64,000 nt of DNA from a virus: the IMG/VR virus record IMGVR_UViG_3300045988_147571; one strand, written 5' to 3'. Below the pieces are notes generated by a model. The model was not told where the DNA came from, searched no databases, and saw only the letters and a program-made list of their open reading frames with translations. Position numbers and translations under genes: made by a program. The number at the start of each line of letters is the position of its first letter. Position 1 is the first letter of the stretch. Below, piece by piece: positions 10,165-51,452 of this stretch.

Positions 10165-10625
10165 ATGAAACTTAATTTTTCTAGTAATGAAGTAAGAAAC
10201 ATTTTTGCAGAAAATGATTATGCAGAGTACTCCCAGCTTATGTTTGACACAGCTATGGGAGAAGAAAAAGTATCTACAAAAGATGCTAATGACAAGATCA
10301 GAGAGATCATGTTCTCCGTACTTGGTGTAGATGAAAATTGCACTAAGAAAGAGCTTAGAAAAGCTATTCGTAGACATAAAATTGATGTATTTGAAATCAT
10401 CGAGGAAACAGTAGAGAATCTGCTTGTTTCTGGTTGGGGAGAAAACCCATTCTTCAATGAATTCGTAGAGATTAAATCTATGGCTGATGGTGATACTAAT
10501 GAGTTCTATGTACCGGATGAAGTTATTCTGACAGTGTCTGAACTTGCGGGCAATCACCATGATCTGATCAGACAGCGCCTGGCAGAAGGACAGACATTCT
10601 CTGTTAAAACTTCTTGGTATGGGAT
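10165..10625 (+). CDS. major capsid protein, exon 1
   Basis: Strong RBS GGAAGGAGGAA. The reading frame continues seamlessly in exon 2 after intron removal (...KTSWYG-I-KIYAEYELFMAGRIDW...). Unspliced, the ORF stops at 10635. The capsid call rests on position, expression signals and a downstream terminator. Confidence 0.65.
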
Positions 10626-11866
10626 TAACTTTTAGTCCCCTTAACATTGTGAAATGTTTTGAAATAAATAACGCATTGAATTGCTGGAAAACCTTAAAGC
10701 TAGTTAAACTACAACGTAATCTAAAAAGATAAGCGTGAATGTAACGAAAGTAGAAAAAATTAACTAGATGATACATGGTTCAATCCTAAATATCATGAGT
10801 AATTAGACACCTGTTTATAGGTGTTTTTTATTATGCTCAAAAATAGGCAATCAGCAGCTAAGACTTTTTAAAATGAGTAAAGTTCAACGACTATCTGGAG
10901 ACAGAGTACATATACAAGTGTTTGGTATATGGAAGTGGTGCGCACCCTCGATGGGTGAAGATATAGTCTAATCTTTAGCGAAAGTTAAAGGGCTTTAAGC
11001 CAACACGGAGTAGCGTCCGATTAATATCATTTTTCAAAATAATTATATAAGGAACTATGAATGCAAGAAAAATTATGTGGTATTTATTGTATAAAAAATA
11101 CTTTAAATAACAAAAAATATATTGGTATGTCAAGAGATATAAAACGAAGATGGTCCGAGCATAGAACAGAATTAAATAGCCACACTCATGTTAATCAATA
11201 TTTACAATCTGCATGGGATAAGTATGGTAAATCAAATTTTAAGTTCTATGTTATTGAGTTATGTGAAGAAGAAAAACTTAGTGAACGTGAATGTTATTAC
11301 ATACAATTATATAAATCTTTATCTCATGAAAATGGATACAATTTAACAACTGGTGGTGAAAATACATCTATTGGTAAATCTGTTATATATTTGAAAGATG
11401 GAACGATTTATAACTATGTAAACGAAGCTGCTCAAGAAGCTAATGTTCAGTCCGTAACTATGATTAGTTGGTGCCGCAAGAAACATAACTATATGTATTT
11501 AGATGAATATAACACTCTTTCTAAAACAGAAAAAGAATACTGGAAAAATTTTAATTGGGAAGAATTTGACCATCAAAAATTAAGTCAAGCACATTCTCGT
11601 GAAAATCTCTCAAGGGTCACAATAAACAAATTAAGTCAAGCTACATCTGGAGATAATAATCCAAGAGCACTTAAAGTTTATTGCCCACAGCTAGATGAAA
11701 CATTTGATTGTATAAAATATGCCTCTGACAAATATGGAGTTAATAGAAGTAGCATATCTTCGTGTCTTAAAGGAAGACTTAAAAGTGCCGGTAAGCATCC
11801 CGTTACCGGAGAAAAACTAACATGGGAAACAGTTGAAAAATGATATTGAATTGTTAAATATAAATG
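10626..11866 (+). mobile_element. group I intron in the capsid gene, carrying a GIY-YIG HEG
   Basis: P1: exon GGGAU (10621-10625) pairs with GUCCC (10635-10639), with a U-G wobble at the splice site. P10: UUUUA (10630-10634) pairs with exon 2 UAAAA (11867-11871). Omega-G at 11866. J8/7-P7 is GAAGAUAUAGUC (10957-10968), with the P7 partner GACUAU at 10889-10894. Confidence 0.85.
11061..11843 (+). CDS. intron-encoded GIY-YIG homing endonuclease
   Basis: MQEKLCGIYCIKNTLNNKKYIGMSRDIKRRWSEHR. C-terminal SSISSCLKGRLKSAG DNA-binding motif. Lies in the 3' (P9-side) part of the intron and ends 23 nt before the 3' splice site. Confidence 0.85.
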   Translation: MQEKLCGIYCIKNTLNNKKYIGMSRDIKRRWSEHRTELNSHTHVNQYLQSAWDKYGKSNFKFYVIELCEEEKLSERECYYIQLYKSLSHENGYNLTTGGENTSIGKSVIYLKDGTIYNYVNEAAQEANVQSVTMISWCRKKHNYMYLDEYNTLSKTEKEYWKNFNWEEFDHQKLSQAHSRENLSRVTINKLSQATSGDNNPRALKVYCPQLDETFDCIKYASDKYGVNRSSISSCLKGRLKSAGKHPVTGEKLTWETVEK

Positions 11867-19159: not shown

Positions 19160-21694
19160 ATGGCTGATTATACAATACAAGTAGGCGTAGAAGTTGAAGA
19201 TAGTAAATTGGATGCGCTGGAAACACGAATTAATTCATTAAAAGATAAACATGTTAAACTCAATGTGGATTTTGGTAATAGTAAGCAGTTGGCTAGAAAC
19301 GCTCAGACAGCGGTAAAAACTATTAATAAAGCTACTGTAAAAGCTGCCAAAAACAGTCCTTCAATTAAGGGGGCCAATCTTGTAGAACAAATGGTTGATC
19401 CCGAAAAAGCTTTAAAAGCAATGTCTAGTACAGTTGGCAAGCTATCTAAATATCAGGGAAAACTTGATTTAGGAGAAGTAAGACTTTCAGTTAATCAAGG
19501 GATTATGGGAGAACTAGATGGTCTTCTTAGTAAATTAAATGAAATTAAAGCAACTGCTAAGAACATGGGATCCATCAAACTTACTGTTGGTGATAATATT
19601 AAAACACAAGACGGTAAAATAGTTGTTGGATCAAATAGCAGTGCCTCTACTGGTTCTGTCAGATCATCTGGACTAACACTTAGACAAGCGCAGGCCGAAA
19701 TCAAAAAAAATATGAAAACCATTGGTACTTTACAAGAACAGTATATCAATGGTCATGTTGATGAATCTACATATAGACAGTCAAAAAAAACTATAGGACA
19801 AAGAAATGCTTATTTAGCAAGAATGGTGCAAACTCAAGGTACTGCTTCTGACTGGGTTACTTCTGCTACTGATTTTAGAGAAGCTCAAGCCAAGAATCGA
19901 GCTGCCTATAGAGAGATGATGTCTAGTGCTGATGCCTATGATAAAGTAATTAGTGATTTGGGTGAAAAACAAAAAACATTTAATGAAGCTGCTCAAGTAT
20001 ATAATTCTAACAGTAGAAGTCCATTAAATAAGACTTTAGGACCCGGATATCAAGCAAGGCTTACAGCTTTTAATGATGTCTATGGTCAATTAAAAGAGTC
20101 ACATGATAAAATCTCCACGCTTACTGGAGATGAAAAAGATCTTGAAAAAGTACGTTTCAGCGCTCTTAAATCTGAAGCTAATCGTCAAGCCAGACAGCTT
20201 AATAATGTGAGTCAGTTTTTCTCAAAAACTCCAAATAAATATAGTAGATCTGAATTTGTAGGTACAGACTTAGATGTGACTTCTGATAAAGTTCAGAATA
20301 AAATGTCACAAATGGTTGATAATCTTGCTAATGGCAGTAGATATACTAAAGAATTTAATGCAGCACAAGGAAAAATGTATGCTACAATAGACAGAGGCTC
20401 TGGTGTATTTGAAAAATATCAGCTTGCATACAAAAATGGGCCAGGTAATATCGATCAGTCTCTTAGCAAAGTCACTCAGAGCGTAAAACCTCTTTCTAGT
20501 TACATTTCTGAAATGGGACAAAAGTTCCGTAGTCTTAGCCAGTATCTTATCAGTAATTTCGGATTCCAAGCTTTAACAACAGGTATCAGATCAGGTGTTA
20601 CATCTATAAAAGAATTAGATTCAGCAATGACTGAATTAAAGAAAACCTCTGAAGGTACAAAACAGGAATATAGAGACTTTACTACTCAAGCTAGGAGTGA
20701 CGCTAAAGATATCGGTAGTACGACTACTCAGATTACTAATAGTGCTGCTGATTTCTCACGTCTTGACTACACACTTGGCGAATCTCAAACTCTAGCTAAA
20801 AATACTGGTATATTAAAAAATGTATCAGAATTTGAGTCTATAGATGATGCAACAACTGCTATGATTTCTATGATGAAAGCATATGATGTAAAAGTTGATG
20901 ATTCTATGGATCTCATTGATAAAATGAATCTTATTGGTAACAACTATGCAATTTCTACAGATGGAATTGCTACCGCTTTACAAGATTCAGGTTCAGCATT
21001 GGTAGCAGCGGGAAACGACTTTGACAAGTCAGTTGCTCTTGTGACGGCTGCTAATAGTGTAGTACAGGACCCATCAAAGGTAGGCGCTGGTCTTAGAACA
21101 ATTGCTTTACGACTTAGAGGCACTTCTGCTGAAGAATTATCTTCTATGGGTGAAGATACAGAAGGTCTTGTAGAGACCACTTCTAAACTTAATTCAAATA
21201 TTAAATCTCTTACTGCCGTTAACGGTAAGGCTGGAGTTTCTATTCTTGATATGAATGGAAACTATAGAGATACTTATGATATTTTAAAAGATATCTCTCA
21301 GGTTTGGGATGATATTGGTAAGCAAGATTTGGCAGATGGTCAGAATAGACAGGCTGCTCTGCTTGAAATGATGGCAGGAAAAAATAGAAGTAATATTCTT
21401 GCATCCATATTACAGCATCCTGAATTACTTACAGATGTTTATAATGATTCCGCAAATAATTATCAAAATTCAGCTCAGAACGAGCTTAATACATACCTTG
21501 ATTCTATCGAAGCAAAAACAACTAAAATTAAAGAATCTTGGTCACAGTTATGGCAATCAGAAGGTAGTACTAATACTTTTAAAGGATTGCTTGATATTGG
21601 CAACGGCGCTGTAGGACTCTTAAATGGTTTAGGACTCAATAAAACCTTAGCCGGAGTCGGCGGTATGCTTGTTAGCCATGCTATGAACTGGGGT
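19160..21694 (+). CDS. tape measure protein, exon 1
   Basis: TP901-type TMP core (DIGSTTTQITNSAADFSRL...GIATALQDSGSALVAAGNDFDKSVALVTAANSVVQDPSKVGAGLRTIALRLRG). Unspliced, the ORF ends at 21721 inside the P1 loop. Confidence 0.85.
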
Positions 21695-22114
21695 GGGACA
21701 AATTATCAGTTGGTCCTTTAGAAAACGCCCCATGTAACCTGGTGGTGACACGGAACGATCTCATATGAGAAAGGGGTTACTAAGCAAACAACCGAAACTG
21801 TCTTTATTCGAAGGAATAGAGAAATGCTTTTAATTTGGCATTCAGGGTGAACCGAAGTATATACTACTCCCCTATTACAGTAATGTAATAGGTATAGTAA
21901 CAACGTATATATATGGGTAATCTGCAGCGAAGCTTCTTTATTTTATAGAGAAGAACGTTCATCGACTATAATGGGAACTTGGTCTCCGGATCAAGAAGGA
22001 ATAGTCAGGACTGTTAGGCAGCTTACGCCGAATAAATTAAAGGGTAAATACATCTTACTCTTGTAAGCAATCTTACCTTATGTGCAAAGGTGATGTAAGC
22101 ACAAAAGCAAGAGA

Positions 22115-22225
22115 TTACTCTCCTGCTTCTTTATGTTTAATATAATATGTACAATCTTCATTTTCAAAGTAAGGACATTCCTCTTCCTTACATTCTTTGT
22201 AGAGAGGACATTCTAATATTTCCAT
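22115..22225 (-). CDS. 36-aa Cys-containing micro-ORF
   Basis: MEILECPLYKECKEEECPYFENEDCTYYIKHKEAGE. Perfect GGAGG 10 nt upstream of the ATG. Below the size cut-off of the ORF track. Confidence 0.45.
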   Translation of the reverse strand: MEILECPLYKECKEEECPYFENEDCTYYIKHKEAGE

Positions 22226-22300
22226 AATCTTTAAACCTCCATAGTATAGTTTTGTTGACTGTCTAAAAGAAATTATTGATTAATTTTCAGAATATAACCT

Positions 22301-22852
22301 TTAATGATTTAAAAAACATTGATCTAACTCTAATAATATTTTTTCCAAATCATCTATATTGATAATAAGAAAAAATTTTCCTTTATGATCTTCTCTAATA
22401 TCTTCGTCTTCAAATTGTATAGCTTTTATTTCAGTACTTGCGTTATGAGTTAATGGATGAATCATTAAACGATCATGGCAGACAGCATTCCTTAAATGTT
22501 TAATTACATTTCTTTCACAATTATTTTCTTTGTATGTGTTTTTATAGATCTCATTATACGTCTTATTAGTGAGTCTTTTTAATGTAGGCACATTCTGAAA
22601 ATTATCTTTTCTATTAGATAGATAATTAAAATATTTCTCTTTTGGAAAAACAAGTAACCCCAAAAAAGAATTTATTAATTGAGTGACCTCATAACATTTT
22701 TGATACTCAAATTCATTGGCAAACATAATTCTTTTTAAACAAGAAATCTCTTTATTTTTATTATGTCCAGCTAATTTTTGAATCATGAAATAATTCATTT
22801 GTGTCCTACAAATAAACTCTTTAACATAATCATCATCTTTAAAATTACTCAT
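22301..22852 (-). CDS. HEPN-like protein (Rx4H motif), predicted RNase
   Basis: The C-terminal half carries IKHLRNAVCHDRL (R-x4-H). About 180 aa, predicted helical. The start lies 6 nt after the upstream stop, with GGTGA inside the upstream gene. Confidence 0.5.
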   Translation of the reverse strand: MSNFKDDDYVKEFICRTQMNYFMIQKLAGHNKNKEISCLKRIMFANEFEYQKCYEVTQLINSFLGLLVFPKEKYFNYLSNRKDNFQNVPTLKRLTNKTYNEIYKNTYKENNCERNVIKHLRNAVCHDRLMIHPLTHNASTEIKAIQFEDEDIREDHKGKFFLIINIDDLEKILLELDQCFLNH

Positions 22853-22858
22853 AAACTA

Positions 22859-23362
22859 TCACCAAGTATATCCACAAGAGTTACACTTAAAGCTCTTGTT
22901 AATCTTCTTACTGAATAATCCCAATATTCCTACTGATACCATACGTTCTCCTGTAGAGATTTTACGAATATTGGTGGAACCACATGTTGGACACTTAGGC
23001 CCAGTAGAGAATTTCTGAGCATTCTGTTTGGCATACCACTGGTCTGTTATCCTGTTTTGCTCTTCTATTCCTTCAGGAGATTCACTATATTTTCTTTTTT
23101 TAACGGCAGAGTAATCTACTTCATTGTCTAACTTTCCATAAAAATATTTTTGCCTAAATATCTCAGATGATTCCAAATGACTAGGACAATGACCATCATG
23201 AGTTTTCTCATATTCTTTTGATAGCTCCATATATGCTGTAGACCAATCAATGCCAGTACCTATATAAGTTCCAGTTTCACAGGTATAACATTTATCTCCT
23301 ATTTTATAAGAAGAAGATGTACTAGTCTTTCCACATTTATTACAAAATAATAATTCTTCCAT
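22859..23362 (-). CDS. double zinc-ribbon protein
   Basis: CNKCGK...CYTCETG at the N-terminus. CPTCGSTN...hydrophobic VSVGILGLF...CNSCGYTW at the C-terminus. Confidence 0.55.
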   Translation of the reverse strand: MEELLFCNKCGKTSTSSSYKIGDKCYTCETGTYIGTGIDWSTAYMELSKEYEKTHDGHCPSHLESSEIFRQKYFYGKLDNEVDYSAVKKRKYSESPEGIEEQNRITDQWYAKQNAQKFSTGPKCPTCGSTNIRKISTGERMVSVGILGLFSKKINKSFKCNSCGYTW

Positions 23363-23403
23363 ATTGTTCCTTTTTATTATATATAGTAATTAAGATTAGC
23401 TAT

Positions 23404-23432
23404 ATTATATCACACAGTTTGGTTTTCGCCAA
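23404..23432 (-). promoter_or_regulatory. sigma-A/sigma-70-like promoter for the antisense cassette
   Basis: The minus strand reads TTGGCG-17 nt-TATAAT with a TG extension (TGaTATAAT). The -10 lies in the last 18 nt of the intron and the -35 in the first 11 nt of TMP exon 2. Confidence 0.45.
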
Positions 23433-26400
23433 GAATGAAGATGGAGAAATTTTACCGCAATCACGAAGAGCTCAACGTAATGCTGCTATAGCGAAAGGTT
23501 ATGTAGAAGCCAATAAAAATTGGCAAGCATATTCAGATGATTTAGAAGTTCTTAAAGAGCTTAACAAGCAACTTGATAATAATGGTCAGGCCATTACAGA
23601 CAACGAGCAACGTATGGCCAAAGCAAATGAAGTAACGAAGAATGCTAGTCAAAGAGCTAAAGATTATGGTAAACAAATGGCCACTAATGCTAAGACTCTC
23701 ACTGATTTTAAAAGAGAAAATGAGGTAGAGAAACCTGATCAACAGAAACAAGGGAAATGGTCCGATGGTCTAAAAAGTATGGCATCTGCAGGTCTCTCAA
23801 TGATTGGCAATGCTTTTATTTCCGCTGGTGTTGGAATGCTTGTGCAAGGAGCTTTCTCATTGCTTGGTAAAGGCATTGACGCTTTCGTTCATAAAAATGA
23901 GAACTTAATTGCTAAAGGTCAAGAAGCAAAAGAATCCATTCAATCCCAAACTAAAGCCTATGAAGACCAGAAAGCATCTCTTGGAGAACTTACTTCCAAA
24001 TACACAGAATTATCTAAAGGCGTAAAAATATCTGGTAATTCTATTAAAAATATTAGTCTTACAGATGATGAATATAAGGATTTCTTAAATACAAGTAATC
24101 AGATTGCTGCCGCAGCACCTAGTCTCACACGTTCATGGGACTCCCAGGGTAATGCCATTCTTAATGCTGGGACTAATGCTGAGGATTTAAACACTCAGAT
24201 TAATGATTACTTGAAGTTACAGAGGAACCTTACTTACTATGATACTAAGAAAAATATTAGTAATCAGTATGAGGGATATGAAACTGCTTTAGGTACTAAC
24301 GAGCGTCAAAAAAATGATTACAAAGATAAATATGATGCAGCAAAATTTAAAGTTAATTCTATGCAGAATTTTTCGAATATGCTTAAAAAGCAAAAAAAAG
24401 GAGAAGATACCTTTAGCTACACATTGGATCAAGCTGCATATGATGCACTCGGCAATACCTTTGGAAAAGCAATAAAAAACTATACACAATCTGCTGATGG
24501 TCAAACAATAACTTTGGAATTTGATGGCAAACAATTAGATTTTCTTAACAACGAAGCAGCCAACATATTAAGTTCTGATAGTAGTGAACTTCAAGAAGCT
24601 CATACCAATTTAGTTAATACACAAGAATCTATAGATGCAGCAAAAAGAGAAATGGTTTCTTCTATCAAGTCAATGGCAAGCACTATTGATTCTTTTGATA
24701 GCTGGGACGATCAAGATAAAGCATCAGAATTTCAATCACAGTTGAATAGTATGCTTAATTCTACGGACAATACCAGATTGCTTAATGATTTTAAAGAATC
24801 CGGTAAAGATATGGACACATGGCTTCGCAATAACATTGTGAACCCTATGTCAACTGCAAATTCAGATGAACAAAAACTTTGGGAACAAGCATTTGAAATG
24901 GAGCCTAAAGATAAAGAAACAGTTCAAGAATTTGCCGCTCGTAGAAATAATCTTTTCGATCAGATTGCTGCTATTTCTGACAGTGATTTTTGGGATAGAG
25001 ATACACTTGGAGAAGCTTTTGGCTTTAACCATACAGAATATGATGATAATGGAAAAGCTGAATTTGTATGGGAAAATCAAGATAAGTTAAATCGAATACA
25101 AGACGCATTGAAAAATGCAAAAGCCAGTAAAACAAAAGGCGATGCTTCTGATGTAAGAACAGATCTTAATAATATGACCCCTGATGAGTTGGACATAGCT
25201 GTACAAGTTATTACTGACTCAGATGCTTTAACTTCTATAGATTCTTTTTATGAGGCATTCGAAAAGGCTAAACAAGCAGCTAAAAATATGAGTGATCAGG
25301 CAGCCGTTTCTTTAGATTCAATGGAAACTAAAGTATCAACTGCTAAGTCTACTCTTTCTTCTATGGGAACTATTCTTACAGAGACTACTTCTGCAGGCGG
25401 AGTTTCTAAAGACAATGTTAAGATTCTTTCTACTGCTTTCAAAAATGTGAAAGACCCTCGTGGCATTGAGCAAAATGTTAATGATTTATTCACCACTACT
25501 TCTGATGGTATCAAACTAAACATAGATGCTTTGAAAACCTTTACGGAATATCAGACTGAAGCCACTGATGGAGATTTCGAAAAGGGTATTAAGTTACAGA
25601 CTAAAGCTATTGCCGAGCAAGCAGAAGAAACAGATAAAGCTTGGAAAGCTATTGCTAAAGCCGATGACAAGGAAGCAGCTAGAGCAACTTATAACGCAGA
25701 AAAAGATAAATTAAAAGATGCTAGAAACGAATATTTATCTTATATGCAATCTCAGTCTGAATGGCAAGCAACTAAGAAACAGCAACAGGAACTTCTTTCT
25801 TATTATTCTCAGTGGCAACGTGCCCAGAGTACGGAGAATGCCGGAGATAAATATAATAACATTGTTGCCGGACTAAAAAATGCTAAAGATGCATATGATA
25901 AAGGTCTTGTAGGTACAGATGATTTTAAATCATTTGCTGCTCTTATTTCTCCTACAGGTTCAGATGATAGAGCAAACTTTGCAGAGAATTATGGTAAAGC
26001 TGTAAGATACCTCACAGAAGATAAGACAGGTGTTAATAATTTCTTAGCTGATCTTAAATCTAAGGGTATGGCATCTTATGATGATGCAAGTAAAAGATGG
26101 TCATTTGACATAGATGATATGAGTAAAGCCGCTCGATCAATGGGAATCAGCAAAGAATTCATGAGTGCTAACTTCGGTCGTCTTCGTGATTATGGCATTG
26201 ATAATAATTTTATATCATCTACAGAAGAAGGTATAGATAGGGTTCAGGAACTTACTTCTGCTCTTTCAGACGAACAAAAACGACTTGAAGAATTAAAGAA
26301 TACGGATAGCACCAATACTACTGCTATTACTGCTTCTGAGGACAAAGTTAATAAATATAAACAGGATTTAAAAGAAACCTATGATAATATGGGTGACTAC

Positions 26401-29400
26401 TCTGAAGATGCTGCACAGACTGCTGTTGATAATTTTAATTCGGCAGCAATGGGTGTACAATCATATCAGAATGCAATAGAAAATGTTAAAAAGAATGAGA
26501 ATCTGACAGAAGCTCAAAGAACTTCTGCAATTAATCAATTAATAGCTAAACAGGAAGAATTAGCTGCCACTTACGGTACTACTGTTAAAGAATTATTAGG
26601 AGCAGATGTATCTTCATTAATGGATGGCATTATAACAGATTCTGCTTCTGTTACTACTGCTCTTGATGGTATCAATAAAGCATATGAAGAACAGAACACA
26701 GATGTTACTTCTTTAGTTGACACTCTTGGAAAATATACTTCTGAACAGTTAGAAGGTATAGATTTCAATGATGGTAAGTGGGATACTGAATTAGGCGATG
26801 CTGAAAAAGCTGTTGAGTCTTTATGTGAGAAGCTTGGTTTAACAAAAGACCAAGCTCGTTCTGTTATTGAGGCTTTAAAAGAAGCTGGTAAATTAAAAGA
26901 TTCTGAGGAAAGTAGTGATTCCTCTAAAGAAACTACTAAGGGGTCTTGGGAGAAACCACAGACTGCTGAACAGATGGGATTCGGTGATGATCCTGACAGA
27001 GCTGCTGAATATACACATTCATTGGAAGCTCTTACTGCTGCCCATAAAGAAAATGATGCCGCTACTGAAAAGTCATTTGAAACCCTTTCTAAATATAATC
27101 GTACACAATTAGAGGGTATCAAATTAAATGATGGTGCTTATAATGTTGAGGGTATAGAACAGGCTGAAGATGCCATACAACAGTTAGCAGATAAGACTCA
27201 GTTGTCTAAAGATCAGATTCTTACTGCTCTTGAAGGTCTTGGTGTTTTGAAAGTTAATGCTCCTACTATGGATGCGACAAAAGGTTTGGAAGATTTAGTT
27301 TCTGAGGCTAAAGATGCACAGGACGAATTGTCTGATCTTACTGGTAAAACATACACATTTGATTTTGATACTACTGATTTAGATACTGCTCATAAACAGG
27401 TAGCTGACCTGCAGGAAGAAGTAAATAAATATAGAGATCGTGATGGTAAATACCATCCAGAGATTACTGGCGGAGAACAGGTGCAATCAATGTACAAAGC
27501 CGCTATTGCTCAAGAACAGAATGCTGAATATAGTTCTTCTGCTATTGGACAGTCTAGTTTATCATCAGATGTCGTACAAGCTGCTCAAGATTTTATGACA
27601 GCTAAGAATGAAATGGATCAGCAAACTCAACTTTATCAAAATGGAATGGATAATACTCTTGATAAAGCTACAGAGAAAGCTAACGCCGCATTTGAATCTT
27701 TACAACAAGCTCAAACTGATTCGGGTATTGAACTTGTAGATACTAATAATATTCAAAAAGCTGAAAATCAGTTACTTTCTATGACTGATAAAGATTTACA
27801 GGCTAAAATAGATGTTCAAGCAGATACAAGCGATGCCGAAGCAGAATTAGATGTCCTAGAAGAATTGGACGGATCTACACTTAAGCTTACTTGCGAATTA
27901 TCGGATGAAGATAGTTTTGAACGAGCTAAATCTGCTATTGAATCTATGCCAGCTAACACCGTTACAACCGTAGATATGGAAGTTAATGGTGAAGAGGATG
28001 TAGAGAAAGCAACAGAGCTTATTGAATCGGCACCTACTGATGGTACTGAGCTAGTTGTTAACTGTCATGTTGATAATGCTGAAGACTTAGATAAAATAAA
28101 TGAAGCTGCTGCAACTGCCAAAGCAAACGGAGCAAATATTAAAATAAACGCTACTGTTGGTGAAGTGGATGCTTCAACTGCTACGAGTACAGAACCTGTT
28201 AAAATGACAGGTGAAATAGAAAGTGCAGAATATACTGGCGCTCCAGTTGAAATAGAAGCTACAGCAAATATTACTAATGTGACTAATGGTGATTCCGCAG
28301 AAGTTAATCCTACAATAAATACGGATGAAGTGGATAACTATACTGTCGATGACAAAGAAGTAAATGTTGATTTTAAAAAGAATTCAGATGAAGTTGATAA
28401 TTATCAACCGGACGATAAAGATGCAACTGCCTATTATGGAGTAGATTCTTCAGCACCAGATAGTTATCAGCCGAGTGATAAAGATGCATATATCACGTAT
28501 CATATACGTGTTGAAGGAGGAATAGCTGCTGGCATTCCAAATAGTCCTTCTGGAGGATCTGGTGGTTCTTTTGCTACAGGTACAATGGCATCAGTTGCTC
28601 GTGCAGATGGTACAATGTACAATGCACCTTGGAACTATCAACTTCTCTCTTCTGCTTTTGCAAAAGGAGATGCTGCTTTACATAAAGACGAAAAAGCGTT
28701 AGTAAACGAAGTCGGGACCGAATCTATTGTGCGTGACGGTACTTGGTTTACGATTCCTGGCGGAGCACATCTTGAGAATCTTAAAAAAGGAGATATTATT
28801 TTCTCTGCTCAACAGACTAAAGATTTACTTGAACATGGCGCAACACCGGGACATGCTAGAACTTATGCACAAGGCACAGCCCCAGGATTAAGTATCTCTC
28901 CTGCTTTCTCATCTGGTTCTAGTTCTTCTACTAACACAGAATTAGATAACAAAATCAAAGAAGTTAGTACTCAGGCAAAAGACTGGATAGACGTAGCTCT
29001 TGATCGTTTAGAGAGAATCGTTGAAAAATACAAAGACACTGCTGAAAGTGACTATTCCAACTATAGAGCTTCTATTAAGGCTTACAATTCAGCACTTAAA
29101 AATCTTAAAAACCAATTAAAGACTCAAAAAGATTCCAGAGCAAAGTATGTAACTAAAGCAGACGAAGTCGCTTCTGCTGTCGGATTGTCTGACGATTTAA
29201 AAAAGAAGGTTCAAAATGGTACTATCAATATAGAGAACCTGTCAGAAGATGATAAAAAACGTGTTGATGCATATCAGGAATGGTATGAAAAAATCTTAGA
29301 CTGTGACAAAGCTATACGTCAGCTCACTATTTCGCAGAAAGATTTAGCTAAAGCTAAAGTTGATCGGGTTACTGAAGCTTATGACACTGTTATAGGCAAA

Positions 29401-32094
29401 CGTGAAAGTAAAGCTGAATATTACAAAGCAAAACAGGAATTAAGAATCACTCAAGGTTACAATCAGAAACCTGGATCTATTTATGAGAAGTATATAAAAA
29501 ATGAACTTTCTTATACTAATAAACAGAAGAAACTTACTGATAAGGAAATAAAAACCTATAAAGGTAAGATGAAAGAATATCTTGCAGAAAATGGTCATAA
29601 AACTGTTGATCCTGAATATCAGAAAATGAAGAAACAGCTTTATGATCTGGAAACCTCAGCTGTTAAATTAGAGAATGAAGCCGCACAGTTAAGACAGGCT
29701 CTACAAGATAATCGTGAACAGATTAAACAATGGGCGGTTGACCGTTGGGAAAGAGCTGGTAGTAAACAAGATGCAGTAATTAATTATAAGACTGTTTCTG
29801 ATGATCCAAACTATCAGATCAAGGAAAAGGATTACACTGAGAGAATCAAAACAAATAATCGTCAGATTATAGCTTTACAGAAGTTGAGAGCAGAAAAAGC
29901 TGAGTACTATGACAGTTATTTTAAGAGCGGAAACAACGAAGAAGCTCAGAAATATCTTGAAGCTATTGCTCAGATTGACGAACAGATTCTAAAACTTGGA
30001 GCTAGTACAGAAGAGTTAAAGAATCAAATCATGGAACTTCGTTGGAAGCCATTTGAAGATATTCAAGATGACCTTTCTAATGTAATCAGTGAGTATCAAA
30101 CCATGCAGAAGCTTCTTGGTGATACAGAAAGTTTCTACAATGACGATGGATCTTTCACTGAAAATGGTTTGACAAATATCCTTCTTTTACAGGAATCTAT
30201 TGATGTTACTAAGCAGAAAATAGCTAACTATAGAGAAGCTTTAGACAAACTAGATGAACAGTATAAGAATGGTTGTTATAGTCAGGAAGAATATACTGAG
30301 AAATCTAAAGAGCTATTAAACGGATTACAGCAAGAGTCTGCTGCCCTCTCTGATTTGCAACAGAATATGCTTACAATGTATGAGACTCAGGTTAAAACTG
30401 AGAATGATCTCTTACAGAAAAATATTGATAAGCGTTTGGAAGCTCTTGATGCTAAAGAGAAGTATTATGAGTATGATAAGACTTTGAAAAAGAAGTCTAA
30501 AGATATTAATACTCTGAAGGCACAGATAGCAGCCCTTGAAGGAACAAGCAATGCTGCTGCCAAAGCCCGTTTAGAAAAATTAAAGGCTGAATTAGCAGAA
30601 TCTGAAGAGGATATGCAAGATACTGTTCATAATCATGAAACTGAAATGAAGAAAACAGGTTTTGAGAATCTTCAATCAGATGCTGAGAAAGCTCTTGATA
30701 ATACCTTAGATGCACTGAAAAAGAATACCAATTTTCAGCAAGCAGTTATTGGTAATATGTTATCCAATGTAACTGCTAATTATGATAGTACCTATAGTCA
30801 TCTGCATGATGTTATGGATCAATATGGAGTACAGGTGTCTACTACATTTGATAAGATGATTACTAAGTCTGCTAATTTTAATACGTCCTTAGTAGCACAG
30901 ACTAAAGCTATGCAAGATGTTATTAATATGGCTACTAAACTTCCTGCCAATCTTGGCGGGACTGCTACTGACATTGTAAATAATACTGCTAAAGTTAATG
31001 GTACTTCAACCGGAGCCGGTAATGTAACGCCGGGAAAAGTAAATGATACGACTTACTCTCTGAAGTTAAATGCATCAGAAATTTATCTAACATACAGTCA
31101 TTTGAAATATTCATTGAAAGCTACATGGTCTCCAAGTAAACCGGAACACTCTGATATTGAATGGTCGAGTACAGATAAATCAGTTGCAAAGGTCTCAACT
31201 TCTGGTGTTGTTACAGGTGTAGCTGCGCCACTTAGTAAACTTGGATTAATGTCAAGAGATGAATCTTTGACTAGAAAATGTAAGATTATTGCAAATGGTG
31301 GTCCGGGTCTTGCAAAAGCTGAGTGTACGGTACATATTATGCCAGATGAACATTATAATGCCATTAAGCAATATGCTGATAAAGTTGGCATCGATACTTC
31401 TAAAGAAGGCAATAATCTTAGAGATGCTATGGAATACGCTTATAAAAATGGTGCATTCCGAAGCAATCAGTCAAGTACCGCTGTTGAAGGATTCCAGAAA
31501 GCTTATCTAAAAGACTGGTTTAATGCTCTTCCAGACCGTCCTAACGGTGCAACGGATGTTCCTAGTGGAGTTAGTCAGCTAGCTGGATATTTCTATTCCA
31601 AAGGTAAACAAGTCACACGTAATGATATGCAGAAACTTGCTGATATCCTTCAGATTAAAACTCCGGGAGTTGGAAGTTATGATACCTGGGGTGGCACACT
31701 TAAAAATAAGATTCTGAAAGCATACAAAGCTTATGGTTATGCTACTGGTGGCGTAATCAATAGACTTGTTCCTGCCAATATGGAAACACTCTTAGGTAAA
31801 GCAATCATCTCCAATGGAGATCAAGGTTTTATTGGCGCTAAAGTTGGAGAAACCGTAATGACTGAAGAGTTCACTCGTTTGCTCAAACCTTCTATTGCTG
31901 CAATGAGCGACTTTACCAATATGTTTAACCCAACTACTCCTATTGCTACCACAAATAATGATTATTCTATCAACAATGAGGTAAACATTAATGTAGCAAG
32001 TATGAGCAGTGATTTAGACATCCAAGATGTCGCCAATAAAGTCTCTACAATTATTAATAAGAATATGACTAGAGACTGGAGAAAACTTAGATGA
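23422..32094 (+). CDS. tape measure protein, exon 2
   Basis: 2890 codons in frame with exon 1. No credible RBS or ATG at the ORF-track start (TTG 23419). Long coiled-coil regions, a Big_2-like Ig domain (DIEWSSTDKSVAKVSTSGVVTGV) and a hydrophobic Gly-rich segment near the junction. Confidence 0.85.
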   Translation, partial: VFAKNEDGEILPQSRRAQRNAAIAKGYVEANKNWQAYSDDLEVLKELNKQLDNNGQAITDNEQRMAKANEVTKNASQRAKDYGKQMATNAKTLTDFKRENEVEKPDQQKQGKWSDGLKSMASAGLSMIGNAFISAGVGMLVQGAFSLLGKGIDAFVHKNENLIAKGQEAKESIQSQTKAYEDQKASLGELTSKYTELSKGVKISGNSIKNISLTDDEYKDFLNTSNQIAAAAPSLTRSWDSQGNAILNAGTNAEDLNTQINDYLKLQRNLTYYDTKKNISNQYEGYETALGTNERQKNDYKDKYDAAKFKVNSMQNFSNMLKKQKKGEDTFSYTLDQAAYDALGNTFGKAIKNYTQSADGQTITLEFDGKQLDFLNNEAANILSSDSSELQEAHTNLVNTQESIDAAKREMVSSIKSMASTIDSFDSWDDQDKASEFQSQLNSMLNSTDNTRLLNDFKESGKDMDTWLRNNIVNPMSTANSDEQKLWEQAFEMEPKDKETVQEFAARRNNLFDQIAAISDSDFWDRDTLGEAFGFNHTEYDDNGKAEFVWENQDKLNRIQDALKNAKASKTKGDASDVRTDLNNMTPDELDIAVQVITDSDALTSIDSFYEAFEKAKQAAKNMSDQAAVSLDSMETKVSTAKSTLSSMGTILTETTSAGGVSKDNVKILSTAFKNVKDPRGIEQNVNDLFTTTSDGIKLNIDALKTFTEYQTEATDGDFEKGIKLQTKAIAEQAEETDKAWKAIAKADDKEAARATYNAEKDKLKDARNEYLSYMQSQSEWQATKKQQQELLSYYSQWQRAQSTENAGDKYNNIVAGLKNAKDAYDKGLVGTDDFKSFAALISPTGSDDRANFAENYGKAVRYLTEDKTGVNNFLADLKSKGMASYDDASKRWSFDIDDMSKAARSMGISKEFMSANFGRLRDYGIDNNFISSTEEGIDRVQELTSALSDEQKRLEELKNTDSTNTTAITASEDKVNKYKQDLKETYDNMGDYSEDAAQTAVDNFNSAAMGVQSYQNAIENVKKNENLTEAQRTSAINQLIAKQEELAATYGTTVKELLGADVSSLMDGIITDSASVTTALDGINKAYEEQNTDVTSLVDTLGKYTSEQLEGIDFNDGKWDTELGDAEKAVESLCEKLGLTKDQARSVIEALKEAGKLKDSEESSDSSKETTKGSWEKPQTAEQMGFGDDPDRAAEYTHSLEALTAAHKENDAATEKSFETLSKYNRTQLEGIKLNDGAYNVEGIEQAEDAIQQLADKTQLSKDQILTALEGLGVLKVNAPTMDATKGLEDLVSEAKDAQDELSDLTGKTYTFDFDTTDLDTAHKQVADLQEEVNKYRDRDGKYHPEITGGEQVQSMYKAAIAQEQNAEYSSSAIGQSSLSSDVVQAAQDFMTAKNEMDQQTQLYQNGMDNTLDKATEKANAAFESLQQAQTDSGIELVDTNNIQKAENQLLSMTDKDLQAKIDVQADTSDAEAELDVLEELDGSTLKLTCELSDEDSFERAKSAIESMPANTVTTVDMEVNGEEDVEKATELIESAPTDGTELVVNCHVDNAEDLDKINEAAATAKANGANIKINATVGEVDASTATSTEPVKMTGEIESAEYTGAPVEIEATANITNVTNGDSAEVNPTINTDEVDNYTVDDKEVNVDFKKNSDEVDNYQPDDKDATAYYGVDSSAPDSYQPSDKDAYITYHIRVEGGIAAGIPNSPSGGSGGSFATGTMASVARADGTMYNAPWNYQLLSSAFAKGDAALHKDEKALVNEVGTESIVRDGTWFTIPGGAHLENLKKGDIIFSAQQTKDLLEHGATPGHARTYAQGTAPGLSISPAFSSGSSSSTNTELDNKIKEVSTQAKDWIDVALDRLERIVEKYKDTAESDYSNYRASIKAYNSALKNLKNQLKTQKDSRAKYVTKADEVASAVGLSDDLKKKVQNGTINIENLSEDDKKRVDAYQEWYEKILDCDKAIRQLTISQKDLAKAKVDRVTEAYDTVIGKRESKAEYYKAKQELRITQGYNQKPGSIYEKYIKNELSYTNKQKKLTDKEIKTYKGKMKEYLAENGHKTVDPEYQKMKKQLYDLETSAVKLENEAAQLRQALQDNREQIKQWAVDRWERAGSKQDAVINYKTVSDDPNYQIKEKDYTERIKTNNRQIIALQKLRAEKAEYYDSYFKSGNNEEAQKYLEAIAQIDEQILKLGASTEELKNQIMELRWKPFEDIQDDLSNVISEYQTMQKLLGDTESFYNDDGSFTENGLTNILLLQESIDVTKQKIANYREALDKLDEQYKNGCYSQEEYTEKSKELLNGLQQESAALSDLQQNMLTMYETQVKTENDLLQKNIDKRLEALDAKEKYYEYDKTLKKKSKDINTLKAQIAALEGTSNAAAKARLEKLKAELAESEEDMQDTVHNHETEMKKTGFENLQSDAEKALDNTLDALKKNTNFQQAVIGNMLSNVTANYDSTYSHLHDVMDQYGVQVSTTFDKMITKSANFNTSLVAQTKAMQDVINMATKLPANLGGTATDIVNNTAKVNGTSTGAGNVTPGKVNDTTYSLKLNASEIYLTYSHLKYSLKATWSPSKPEHSDIEWSSTDKSVAKVSTSGVVTGVAAPLSKLGLMSRDESLTRKCKIIANGGPGLAKAECTVHIMPDEHYNAIKQYADKVGIDTSKEGNNLRDAMEYAYKNGAFRSNQSSTAVEGFQKAYLKDWFNALPDRPNGATDVPSGVSQLAGYFYSKGKQVTRNDMQKLADILQIKTPGVGSYDTWGGTLKNKILKAYKAYGYATGGVINRLVPANMETLLGKAIISNGDQGFIGAKVGETVMTEEFTRLLKPSIAAMSDFTNMFNPTTPIATTNNDYSINNEVNINVASMSSDLDIQDVANKVSTIINKNMTRDWRKLR

Positions 32095-41968: not shown

Positions 41969-44900
41969 ATGTCGTTTAAAGATGCTAAGAAACTTGCTGC
42001 AGCTAACTCAGCAAACACGACTTTGATGACCGCTGAGTTGGCCGCAGTCACCATTGATGATGATTATACGTTATGTACTGATGGACGCTATGAAGTATAT
42101 AACAAATATAGCGATGATAATTTTTCATCAGTGGACAATTTAAAAAATATAACCGTTGACTCTTCACAGATCAATATCATGCAGGAAGAAAACAGTCAGT
42201 ATATGCCATTCAGAATTCCAAGATACTGGGATGGAATGGATCTTATGGATATGTTGATTCAGGTAAGATATCAGTCTGTGGCTCAGAGCAAAGGTCAGAT
42301 TGCAAATGTGATCAATGTTGCATCAAGTTCTACTCATATTACTTTTGGATGGCTAATTGATGCAAATGTTACTGCTTCTGCAGGTGATATTATATTTGAA
42401 ATCACAGCAACTGGCTTAAATGAAAAAGGAAAAAACTATATTTGGAGAACCAGACCAAATGGTAAGTTTACTGTTCTGGAAGGTCTGAATTATGATGGCA
42501 TCATTGAACCATCTGATGATTGGTATACAAGCTTTGTCAATATGGTCTTAGGACATGTAGCCGAAGCAAAACAGTATGCAGATGAAGCCAAAGCTTCTGC
42601 CGCTTCTATTAATGTAGATGATATTAAGGCAGATGTAACTTCTTCTGTTACAAAAAATCTAAATCAGACCGTAGCTGAGTCTCTGAAAGATTATTATACA
42701 AAAACAGAAATTGATCAGACTGTAAATGAATTAAATACTGCTATCTCCAGTATTGACAGTCTGAAAAACTTAAAAGTTGAATATGATAATACAACTGGAC
42801 ATCTCGTATTTAAAGATAAAGAGGAACAGATTGGCGAAATTACAATCAACAGTCTTTCCAATCTTGTCGTTGAATATTCTGTAGTCAATGGCAAAGGTTC
42901 ACTCGTGTTTAAGAATGGAGAAACAGAGATCCAGACTGTAGAACTTAGTTCTATTGAACCGTCTGCCGCATGGACTTCTGCTCTTAAAGAGGACATTTCT
43001 AAGAGTACAGATGAAAAGCTCTCTCCTGTTGTAGATCGTGTGTCTGCTCTTGAGACTGCAAAAGATGATCTGGCAGGCAAAGTTGAAACAAATACAACTG
43101 ATATTTCAGGTCTGAAAACAGATGTAGCTGGATTAAAAGAATCTAACGAAACAATTTCTGCTACTACTACAGAAACCAAAAATACGGTAGATATTCTGAA
43201 GCAGAATGTTTCTGGTTATGATTCTCAGTTTGAATCCATCAATAGTGACATTACTGCGATCAATGAATCTATTAAGGATTTAGGTAAAAATACAGGTCAT
43301 GAGTATGACGTTTCTTATGAAGAAAATGTTTTTACTCTGTATGAAGATGATGTAATTAAGAAACAGTTTACAATCACTGGTGGCTCTGGACCATCTGACA
43401 CTACTACGGTCACAATCGAGAGAATTACAAGTTCTGATGCGATCTTCTTAGCAGGAAACTCTGCAGTGATCGAATATAACTTTACCTCTGTAGATAATAC
43501 AGGAGATACAACCGGTAATGGTACTGCTACATGGCGTGTCGGAAGTACAACAGTTGCTACTACTGTAGCTGCTCAGGGTAAGAATAGTTTTGATATTACA
43601 CAATATCTGAAAAATGGTGCAAACTCTATTAGACTTTCTATCACTGATAGTTTTGGTACAATCGCTACTAAGACTTGGACCATTACAATTGTTGACTTTA
43701 AAATTGAGAGTATTTTTGATGATACACTCTTCTATTCAGACGAGGTAACATTTAGATATACTCCATATGGTGATATTAATAAGACTGTACATTTTGTTCT
43801 TGATGAAAAAGAAATTGCAGGAGTTGAAACAACTGCTTCTGGTAGACAGATGACTTATACTTTGGCAAAACAGAGTCATGGTGCTCACCTTCTGAAAGTG
43901 TATATGACTGCAAGTATCAATAATCAGGACGTAACTTCTGAGTCAGTATATAAAGATATTATCTGGGTTGAACAAGGAAATACTACTCCTATTATTGGAT
44001 GTTCTATGGTTGAATTTACTGCAAAACAGTACAATACAACAAGCATCAAATATGTTGTATATGATCCAGAACATAATCCTGCTACTGTAAAACTCTTTGT
44101 TGATGGCAAAGTTGCTTCTACTCTTACTGTTGGAAGAACTGCTCAGATCTGGAGCTACAAGTCTACCGAAATAGGCAAACAGTCTCTTACTATCAGTTGC
44201 CGTAGAATCACAAAGATTCTTACTGCTACTATTGAGAAACTGGATATCAATGTATCTCCGGTAACTACAAACCTTGCATTTGACTTTAATCCATCTGGTA
44301 AAAACAATGGTGAAGCTGACTGGCTGAAGATCAATGATAATCTTACAATTGAAGTGTCAGATAACTTTGATACAACAAATGGTGGTTATCAGGTCGATGA
44401 AGATGGAGATACTTATTTCTGCGTAAAAGCAGGAACTGCTGCTACTATCCCATATCAGTTATTTGCTGATGATGCAAAGAAAACTGGCAAGAACTTTAAA
44501 TTCATTTATAAATGTACAAATGTAAAGAACTATGAAGCTCAAGTACTCTCCTGTTTTGCAGATAATCTTGGTTATACTGTAAAAGCTCAGGAAGCAACAC
44601 TGAAATCTGAACAGAACGAAATCTCTGTCCCATATTGTGAAGATTACTATATGGAGCTGGAATTTAATATTCTGCCGGACAGTGAATATACAGAAATGGT
44701 TATGTGGGTTGATGGCATTCCTACAAGAGTAAAACTGTATGCCACTTCTGATAGTTTCACGCAGACAAATCCTGTAGGTATTACAATCGGTTCTGATGAC
44801 TGCGACGTTATTGTATACAGAATAAAAGCTTATACAATGAACCTCACTGATGATGAGATTCTGGATAACTTCATTGCTGATGCAAAAAATGCAAATGAAA

Positions 44901-51113: not shown

Positions 51114-51452
51114 TTATTTTGCTTCTAACATATATTTAATAAATGAACCTATAGAAGCATTCTTCATATCTTCAATGGATAATAACTTATGTCCATCTGA
51201 TATGAGTTGTCTCATGTAATCAAATACATGAGCATTATGTATAATATTCTGGATTTCATCGAAAGTTATCATATCCATTGTGTTCATTTCGAAAAGCAAT
51301 ATTTTTGTTCCTTTTCTATTTTTATGTGTATCAATGAATTTTTTAATCGTTTCTTCGTCTGTAGTATTAACTTCATCTACTACATAACTTTCAAAGTGAT
51401 CCAGACGAATACATAATAATTTAATATAGCTTTTTATTTCAAAGTTAGCCAT
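51114..51452 (-). CDS. hypothetical protein, antisense moron in the fibre module
   Basis: 112 aa. Perfect RBS AAAGGAGGTGA. Has its own terminator. No recognisable motif. Confidence 0.6.
   Translation of the reverse strand: MANFEIKSYIKLLCIRLDHFESYVVDEVNTTDEETIKKFIDTHKNRKGTKILLFEMNTMDMITFDEIQNIIHNAHVFDYMRQLISDGHKLLSIEDMKNASIGSFIKYMLEAK

Follow-up and report, generated by a model that had tools for sequence, protein, structure and literature searches.

The 64,000-nt stretch of the IMG/VR virus record IMGVR_UViG_3300045988_147571 (hereafter, the window) contains a tape-measure protein (TMP) gene interrupted by a group I intron, with three minus-strand genes in the 3' part of that intron (Table 1). 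Phage group I introns are generally regarded as vehicles for homing endonuclease genes (HEGs). The initial annotation of the window proposed that the TMP intron departs from this pattern by carrying an antisense three-gene cassette and no recognizable endonuclease. The three minus-strand open reading frames (ORFs) were recovered at the positions originally given, along with the short spacing between the first two, the ribosome-binding site (RBS) of the third and the CxxC ribbons of the first, and the cassette sits within the intron, 3' of the P9 hairpins. Comparison with related loci indicates that the cargo is an operon with constant ends and an exchangeable middle rather than a fixed set of three genes.

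Table 1. Features of the interrupted tape-measure gene, with positions in the window
Feature	Position	Strand	Description
TMP exon 1	19160..21694	+	845 codons; PhageMin_Tail domain, Pfam PF10145 E = 6e-17; end fixed by P1 U·G pair
Group I intron	21695..23421	+	1,727 nt; interrupts TMP after Gly845 codon
P1, P1a and guide	21689..21732	+	guide 5'-AAAAC-G-CCCCA (21722-21732), also forms P10
Ribozyme core, P1 to P9 hairpins	21695..~22110	+	P7 = GACUAU/AUAGUC; ~415 nt at intron 5' end
Four-Cys peptide gene	22115..22225	-	36 amino acids (aa); last gene of antisense operon
Candidate long-range helix	22134..22162 with 23388..23416	+	29-nt inverted repeat, 76% complementary; putative pairing
HEPN gene	22301..22852	-	183 aa; pEK499_p136 family; occupies variable slot
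Double zinc-ribbon gene	22859..23362	-	167 aa; first, constant gene of antisense operon
Putative antisense promoter	23404..23432	-	TTGGCG-17 nt-TG-n-TATAAT; best-scoring site in region
TMP exon 2	23422..32094	+	2,890 codons plus stop

A group I intron in the tape-measure gene

Using the exon-1 protein as a query, 28 related loci were retrieved from IMG/VR, more distant loci (L032-L035) were retrieved through homologues of the cargo proteins, and the splice sites were derived by aligning the window with L032/L033 and L035. The core is 76% identical to the window in L032/L033 and ~70% identical in L035, although the cargo differs. The homology of the L032 and L035 cores was established by alignment, because Rfam gave no match in the TMP gap of L032; the TMP gaps of L028 and of prophages in metagenome-assembled genomes (MAGs) likewise had no group I match in Rfam.

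In P1, the end of exon 1 (21689-21694, UGGGGU) pairs with 21727-21732 (GCCCCA), and the pair at the 5' splice site, U21694·G21727, is invariant across the 8 distinct sequences compared. The first intron nucleotide, G21695, pairs with C21726, the P1a hairpin is formed by 21696-99 and 21713-16, and P10 joins GUUUU at the start of exon 2 (23422-26) to AAAAC of the guide (21722-26). Across the same sequences, the 7 pairs of P1 are 100% paired, with compensatory changes at 4 of them, and the 5 pairs of P10 are 97.5% paired, with a G-C to A-U covariation. Taken together, P1, P1a and P10 have 98% of cells paired and 5 pairs with compensatory changes, a level of covariation reached by none of 500 shuffles, and registers slid along the sequence are only 38-65% paired. 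The compensatory changes occur in L032, L033 and L035. The guide base C21726, which is replaced by U in L032 and L035, shows covariation with intron position +1 and, in L032 and L033, with position +1 of exon 2, where L035 has a U-U mismatch, a pattern that fits the behaviour expected of a group I guide sequence.

The 3' boundary is marked by the terminal G23421, with a G directly 5' of exon 2 in 28/28 loci, and the intron ranges in length from 1,711 to 4,924 nt. An RNAalifold consensus of five cores contains P1, P1a, P2, P4-P6, P7, P8 and the P9 hairpins (but not P3) with 31 covarying pairs, and the J6/7-P7 string GUUCAUCGACUA and the J8/7-P7' string GGAAUAGUC are present in the core. A local Rfam search assigned 21794-22028 to Intron_gpI (RF00028) with 25.4 bits (E = 7.7e-4; gathering score 50). 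At the gathering threshold, Rfam reported a single group I intron in the window, the capsid-region intron at 10617-10990, and missed the intron in the TMP gene.

The predicted ligated message reads in frame across the junction (...AAC TGG GGT/GTT TTC GCC..., NWG/VFAKNE). At the sequence level, the predicted exon junction is AACTGGGGT/GTTTTCGCC, with AACTGGGGTGTTTTCGCC as the ligated form and GAACTGGGGT/GTTTTCGCC as the intron-less junction. Exon 2 has neither a start codon nor a Shine-Dalgarno sequence; a strong Shine-Dalgarno sequence is found on nearly all other genes of the window. Among uninterrupted TMPs, P0238 (3,300 aa) aligns over the junction as KNKGLF-KLIDDE, and P0170 (2,944 aa) is 50% identical at the end of exon 1 and continues for ~2,100 further residues. 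By covariation, the terminal G and the in-frame junction, the initial premise of a TMP intron holds, with boundaries refined to 21695-23421, and splicing would be predicted to occur in vivo.

With the intron at these boundaries, the called 853-aa ORF runs into the intron for its final 8 codons (GTNYQLVL and the stop), and this stretch (21695-21721) corresponds to the P1a hairpin and its loop. Its conservation, including the invariant AAATTATCAG, lies at the RNA level. In unspliced TMP RNA, translation would stop 8 codons inside the intron. Two alternative assignments were rejected: a 5' splice site placed around the TAG of 21719-21721, which gives no consistent P1 and is contradicted by the sequence of L032, and a pairing of AAUCUUA (22071-77) with a 3' UAAGAUU, since RNAalifold pairs 22071-77 locally, with covariation.

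Antisense genes within the intron

The 167-aa protein has CxxC...CxxC motifs at residues 7/10/25/28 and 124/127/160/163, the 183-aa ORF starts 6 nt past the upstream stop and carries the motif R121-N-A-V-C-H126, and the 36-aa ORF encodes four Cys residues and has a GGAGG located 7 nt 5' of its ATG. The length of these ORFs is no proof that they are genes, because long chance antisense ORFs occur elsewhere in the AT-rich window (e.g., 44459-45313). Both GC skew and AT skew flip sign across 22000-23400, where GC content drops to 25-28%. Homologues were recovered for the HEPN protein (n = 27) and the zinc-ribbon protein (>329), and values of dN/dS are 0.06-0.42 for the peptide, 0.10-0.26 for the HEPN protein and 0.27-0.70 for the zinc-ribbon protein. 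The peptide retains the pattern MEILECPLYxECxExEC...CxY in phages with a zinc-ribbon protein that is only 46% identical. On this combined evidence the three genes are judged to be real and under purifying selection, and the conserved homologues and dN/dS values below 1 speak against their decay. The antisense orientation of the cargo also stands, with no sense-strand ORF of at least 50 aa between the two TMP ORFs of the window.

The middle ORF had been described as HEPN-like, and the 183-aa protein matches the Pfam family PF18736 ('HEPN pEK499_p136') with a score of 56.9 bits (E = 2.6e-15; cut-off 26.6), a domain also recorded in 25 of its 27 homologues. In 21 homologues with identity down to ~29%, N122 and H126 of the RNx3H motif are invariant and R121 is at least 90% conserved. 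An AlphaFold model (predicted local distance difference test, pLDDT, 87) is mainly helical with a C-terminal beta region. By its sequence, the protein is a genuine member of the HEPN family and is predicted to be an RNase toxin. The pEK499_p136 family has been tied to restriction-modification (R-M), ART/Macro and Pgl operons, and HEPN domains are classic toxins of toxin-antitoxin (TA) and abortive-infection systems (Anantharaman et al. 2013, PMC3710099). Consistent with such contexts, the two methylase genes in a type I R-M operon flank a homologue in Geomonas, and another bacterial homologue adjoins a WYL regulator and a resolvase. The window protein shares with the family the Pfam match above the cut-off, the RNx3H motif and homologues in R-M and defence contexts; it differs in being phage-encoded, in lying within an intron, downstream of a zinc-ribbon gene, and in having no R-M, ART, Macro or Pgl partner.

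In the model of the 167-aa protein (pLDDT 83; residues 1-110 above 90), the N-terminal zinc ribbon packs against a domain of four helices, and the C-terminal ribbon is interrupted by a Gly/hydrophobic loop. Searches of Pfam, PHROGs, NCBIfam, PDB (sequence and profile) and, through Foldseek, PDB and BFVD returned generic zinc ribbons only and no known fold or family for this protein; there are weak resemblances to ribbons of the IS1595 transposase, Lar and TFIIS/RPA12 types, and one family member in BFVD is auto-named 'RNA polymerase I-like'. Against INPHARED phages, the zinc-ribbon protein had a single partial match (39%, to an unannotated faecal contig), the DNA search and the HEPN protein search had none, and there is no cultured relative by these searches. 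The 36-aa peptide had no family match. Both the zinc-ribbon protein and the peptide may regulate or partner the resident effector, or may serve the intron.

None of the intron proteins has a GIY-YIG, HNH, LAGLIDADG, His-Cys box, PD-(D/E)xK or EDxHD motif, family or fold in Pfam, PHROGs, NCBIfam, PDB or Foldseek searches, in agreement with the initial reading of the three ORFs. The ORF of the capsid-region intron, used as a positive control for the HEG search, was identified as GIY-YIG at 5e-12, in line with the sense-strand homing endonuclease initially proposed for that intron. In that conventional arrangement within the same genome, the group I intron (10617-10990, Rfam 71 bits) is followed by a sense-strand GIY-YIG ORF (11061-11843) with a NUMOD-like tail. 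Further, Pfam searches of the cargo proteins found no TnpA or TnpB and no MNT or other known antitoxin domain, and PADLOC had no family for the three window proteins and only coiled-coil noise for one protein of L035.

Constant ends and an exchangeable middle

Cargo was compared across the 26 loci in which both intron ends are present. The core and both junctions are conserved, and the interior differs. The zinc-ribbon gene is present in 26/26 loci, always adjoining exon 2, and the peptide gene is present in all loci spanning its site (including L032 and L035), always adjoining the core. The HEPN gene occurs in nine of the 26 loci. The three-gene cassette of the initial annotation is the arrangement in the window and is not a fixed set; its constancy does not extend beyond the zinc-ribbon and peptide genes.

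Alternative occupants of the slot include a membrane protein (102 aa), an HExxH protein (225 aa), a Cys-rich protein (305 aa) and a 59-aa sense ORF, and a 630-bp insertion with a sense-strand 154-aa ORF is found between 22105 and 22119. The 4.9-kb intron of L032 has eight genes between the two TMP parts, including a longer HEPN protein (273 aa), a protein weakly resembling DUF6782 metallopeptidases and a second small zinc-ribbon protein. The layout recurs in L035, where two unrelated genes fill the middle and the zinc-ribbon protein is 46% identical. Most of the alternative cargo genes are ORFans with no match in Pfam or PADLOC.

The breakpoints of these swaps recur at 22254 and at 22955/22987, the latter corresponding to the start of the sequence coding for the C-terminal ribbon. 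This ribbon exists in two versions that are shuffled relative to the N-terminal domain, and the HEPN alleles P0010, P0011 and L022 (L022:10841-10895) end in CPHLGKTxQCxxCGAKF, a copy of the second knuckle found in the alternative version of the ribbon. The tail appears to be a scar left by recombination or by a cassette inserting into the zinc-ribbon gene, and it suggests that cassettes are exchanged within the ribbon coding sequence. No terminal repeats were found that would mark the cargo as a discrete transposon.

Spread of the zinc-ribbon family and signs of mobility

In a scan of species-representative genomes with the zinc-ribbon alignment, the C-terminal ribbon module turned up behind many different N-termini in MAGs of the Lachnospiraceae, Oscillospiraceae and other Clostridia. 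The module, KCPTCGS...G(L/I)FSKKINK(S/T)FKCNxCGYTW, is carried on varied N-termini in L039, L042-L044, L047, L056-L057 and L065, and in L029-L031 and L036. Genes with the module lie antisense beside TMP-like sequence in at least 11 of 40 loci and between TMP-N-like and TMP-C-like ORFs in five (L040, L045, L049, L051 and L053), sometimes as two to three tandem paralogues. In the Roseburia MAG locus L045, the split in the TMP falls at the homologous Gly codon (KNLG/IFK), and a zinc-ribbon protein with 34% identity occupies the same antisense position; group-I-like P7 strings were seen there by eye only, and Rfam gave no score for the region. Members of the family are found away from TMP genes as well, in tandem arrays of two to four paralogues and on small contigs with resolvase, SprT and RepB genes. 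In L047, the module is downstream of, and on the same strand as, PhageMin_Tail-like ORFs.

Compared with the window, L022-L026 have ~75% identity over most of exon 1 and 95-98% identity from 21434 through the intron core, and in L023, L025 and L026 an identity of 89-94% continues into exon 2. The pattern resembles co-conversion after intron transfer, and ordinary recombination could also yield it. The first ~750 nt of exon 2 (23422-24164) exist as two very divergent alleles among otherwise close relatives, one 67-75% and the other 88-94% identical to the window, and the switch between these alleles coincides with the intron position.

Alleles of the TMP gene lacking the intron were sought in IMG/VR and none was found: the predicted ligated junction had 51 matches, all of them chance matches without TMP homology. 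Among the related loci, no relative had a HEG at the TMP intron site.

Signals at the 3' end of the intron

A conserved promoter-like site for the antisense operon straddles the 3' splice junction, with its -35 element within exon 2 and its extended -10 element within the last 18 nt of the intron. The TATAAT is at the same offset in 28/28 loci, the TG extension is present in 26 of the 28, the spacer is 17 nt throughout and the -10 columns are invariant in the intron alignment. At the equivalent place in the Roseburia prophage, TTGAAA-17-TATAAT was recognized by eye. Conservation of this kind is consistent with a functional promoter.

A candidate long-range helix joins the coding region of the peptide to the 3' terminus of the intron. 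Its AAUCUU/AAGAUU part is invariant in all loci, and its AU-rich part is out of register in L032. Such a helix might close off the cargo as a loop, so placing the 3' splice site at the core.

A proposed harbour for exchangeable genes and its alternatives

The reading favoured here, to which we give somewhat better than even weight on the basis of sequence comparison, is that the intron is a safe harbour for exchangeable conflict genes, held as an antisense operon in the P9 periphery. Self-splicing would remove the intron to yield a single TMP of about 3,735 aa, and the stretch from the P9 hairpins to the 3' terminus would have been colonized by an autonomous antisense operon to become a cargo bay, transcribed independently from the extended -10 promoter astride the 3' splice junction. 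Because the intron RNA would be spliced out of the TMP mRNA, the bay would tolerate insertions and swaps, and the intron would act as a phenotypically silent harbour for rapidly swapping accessory genes. The HEPN gene would most likely be used in phage-phage or phage-host conflict, of the exclusion or abortive-infection type. The zinc-ribbon protein, whose gene ends 6 nt ahead of the HEPN start, possibly restrains or regulates the HEPN protein. Of the possibilities raised initially, a conflict module is the best fit for the HEPN gene, and a TA pair that stabilizes the intron is weakened because HEPN is dispensable. Replacement of an ancestral HEG by a moron would fit the data, although no relative with a HEG at this site was found.

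Several observations weigh against a harbour for conflict genes. The constant zinc-ribbon protein and peptide are left unexplained by it, and the 'conflict' label draws on one family and on analogy, because there is no PADLOC match and the alternative cargo genes are mostly ORFans. A Foldseek search of PDB with the HEPN model found no HEPN structure (best E = 0.35). The number of promoter-like sites in the region is not above that of shuffled sequence, so the argument for a promoter is one of conservation, and that conservation could instead serve the RNA structure of the intron 3' end. The Rfam score of the TMP intron falls short of the gathering score. Further, because no close intron-less or cargo-less allele was found among the relatives, the dispensability and mobility of the cargo are deduced from mosaicism only.

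An unlikely but substantial alternative is that the zinc-ribbon protein is a new intron mobility factor, either a homing endonuclease itself or the DNA-binding partner of a nuclease encoded elsewhere, with the slot genes as hitch-hikers. New homing machinery cannot apply to the HEPN protein, and this part of the initial proposal is confined to the constant zinc-ribbon protein, the sole protein-size gene shared by all 26 loci. Its antisense position is kept at 46% identity in L035 and 34% in the Roseburia-MAG prophage, its ribbons weakly resemble the nucleic-acid-binding ribbons of transposases and TFIIS-type proteins, and L022-L026 match the window at 95-98% identity over the intron and ~260 nt of adjoining exon, against ~75% over the rest of exon 1, in a pattern resembling co-conversion. 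However, the searches found no nuclease motif, family or fold in this protein, no empty target site was found among the relatives and the mosaicism is explicable by ordinary phage recombination. The occurrence of the family outside introns, in tandem arrays and on resolvase/SprT contigs, is also unlike known HEGs.

A broader conjecture, to which we attach a similarly low probability, takes the intron lineage as an integron-like cassette platform set within an essential gene of the phage. A new class of intron-borne factor for mobility or cassette exchange would be represented by the zinc-ribbon protein, perhaps together with the peptide, and the zinc-ribbon coding sequence would be the recombination site at which effectors (HEPN RNase, membrane and metallopeptidase-like proteins) are swapped among phages and prophages of Clostridia.

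It is slightly less probable again that the zinc-ribbon and HEPN proteins form a TA addiction pair that stabilizes the intron or the phage genome, the zinc-ribbon protein neutralizing the HEPN RNase. The order of a putative antitoxin followed by a toxin, the short gap between them (6 nt in the window, L005 and L022; 17 nt in L032), the presence of a zinc-ribbon gene directly upstream of HEPN wherever HEPN occurs in these loci and the classic role of HEPN domains as TA and abortive-infection toxins (PMC3710099) would all suit such a pair. Yet 17 of the 26 loci keep the zinc-ribbon gene without HEPN, so the supposed antitoxin is not dedicated to HEPN; it has no MNT or other known antitoxin domain, and bacterial homologues of the HEPN family have no zinc-ribbon neighbour.

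That there is no functional intron, with TMP-N and the 2,891-aa ORF as separate genes and the cassette as an intergenic moron island by an intron relic, would accord with the sub-threshold Rfam score and the lack of Rfam group I matches in the TMP gaps of distant relatives, but is highly improbable and, as judged from P1, P1a and P10 kept by compensatory changes (including the three-way covariation of one guide base), the invariant terminal G, the in-frame junction, an exon 2 without start codon or RBS and the uninterrupted homologues, essentially excluded.

Relation to known systems

Among known systems, the TMP intron of the favoured harbour reading has partial counterparts. Introns of the T4 nrdD/sunY type share the compact core at the 5' end, the ORF insertion in the P9 region, the short 3' terminus with a terminal G and P10, and the location in an essential phage gene; they carry one sense-strand HEG, whereas the TMP intron has an antisense multi-gene operon with its own putative promoter, no recognizable endonuclease and variable content. 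IStrons, in which a group I intron is combined with an IS200/605 element, share the 5' core, the 3' mobile cargo, splicing from the host transcript and occurrence in Clostridia, but the TMP intron has no TnpA/TnpB, its antisense cargo varies gene by gene and its site is fixed in the phage TMP gene. Nuclear rDNA group I introns with antisense HEGs share an ORF on the strand opposite the host gene; those HEGs are of the His-Cys box type, a motif and fold that the TMP intron lacks. The hot spots of P2/P4 phages, and morons, share conserved flanks, rapidly exchanged small genes that include toxin-like and membrane proteins, and autonomous transcription; P2/P4 hot spots lie between genes, whereas the bay in TMP lies inside a self-splicing intron of an essential structural gene.

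A literature search found no report tying group I introns to HEPN or defence cargo. The locus provides a case of an intron without a HEG but with an antisense operon and an exchanged middle gene across a lineage of gut Clostridia phages. If the harbour reading is correct, self-splicing introns would be a neutral landing pad on which conflict genes can be swapped inside a tightly packed essential operon without damage to it, and introns would be a new place to seek phage genes for defence, counter-defence and exclusion. The locus also draws attention to a very widespread double zinc-ribbon family that occupies TMP gaps in virulent-looking phages and prophages alike, to a conserved Cys4 peptide of 36 aa and to a putative promoter that spans a splice junction and would be present only in intron-bearing alleles.

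Additional features

Further insertions in relatives mark TMP as a hot spot for introns in this phage lineage. L021 has a further group I intron in TMP exon 1 (L021:5145-5502, 61.9 bits), and L022-L026 have an exon-1 insertion of ~1.7 kb with a 377-aa ORF containing a helix-turn-helix domain (L022:6843-8586). In L045, another group I intron (L045:16163-16429, 40.6 bits) lies ~6 kb 5' of the split TMP. A skipping-rope RNA motif, an orphan RNA class (RF02924, 81 bits; L053:8194-8272), directly adjoins a gene with the zinc-ribbon module in an Oscillospiraceae MAG, within the TMP gap. Elsewhere in the window, an antisense ORF of 112 aa (51114-51452) has a strong GGAGGTG RBS and no Pfam match, and a tRNA gene (1202-1273, Rfam 65 bits) lies near the left end.

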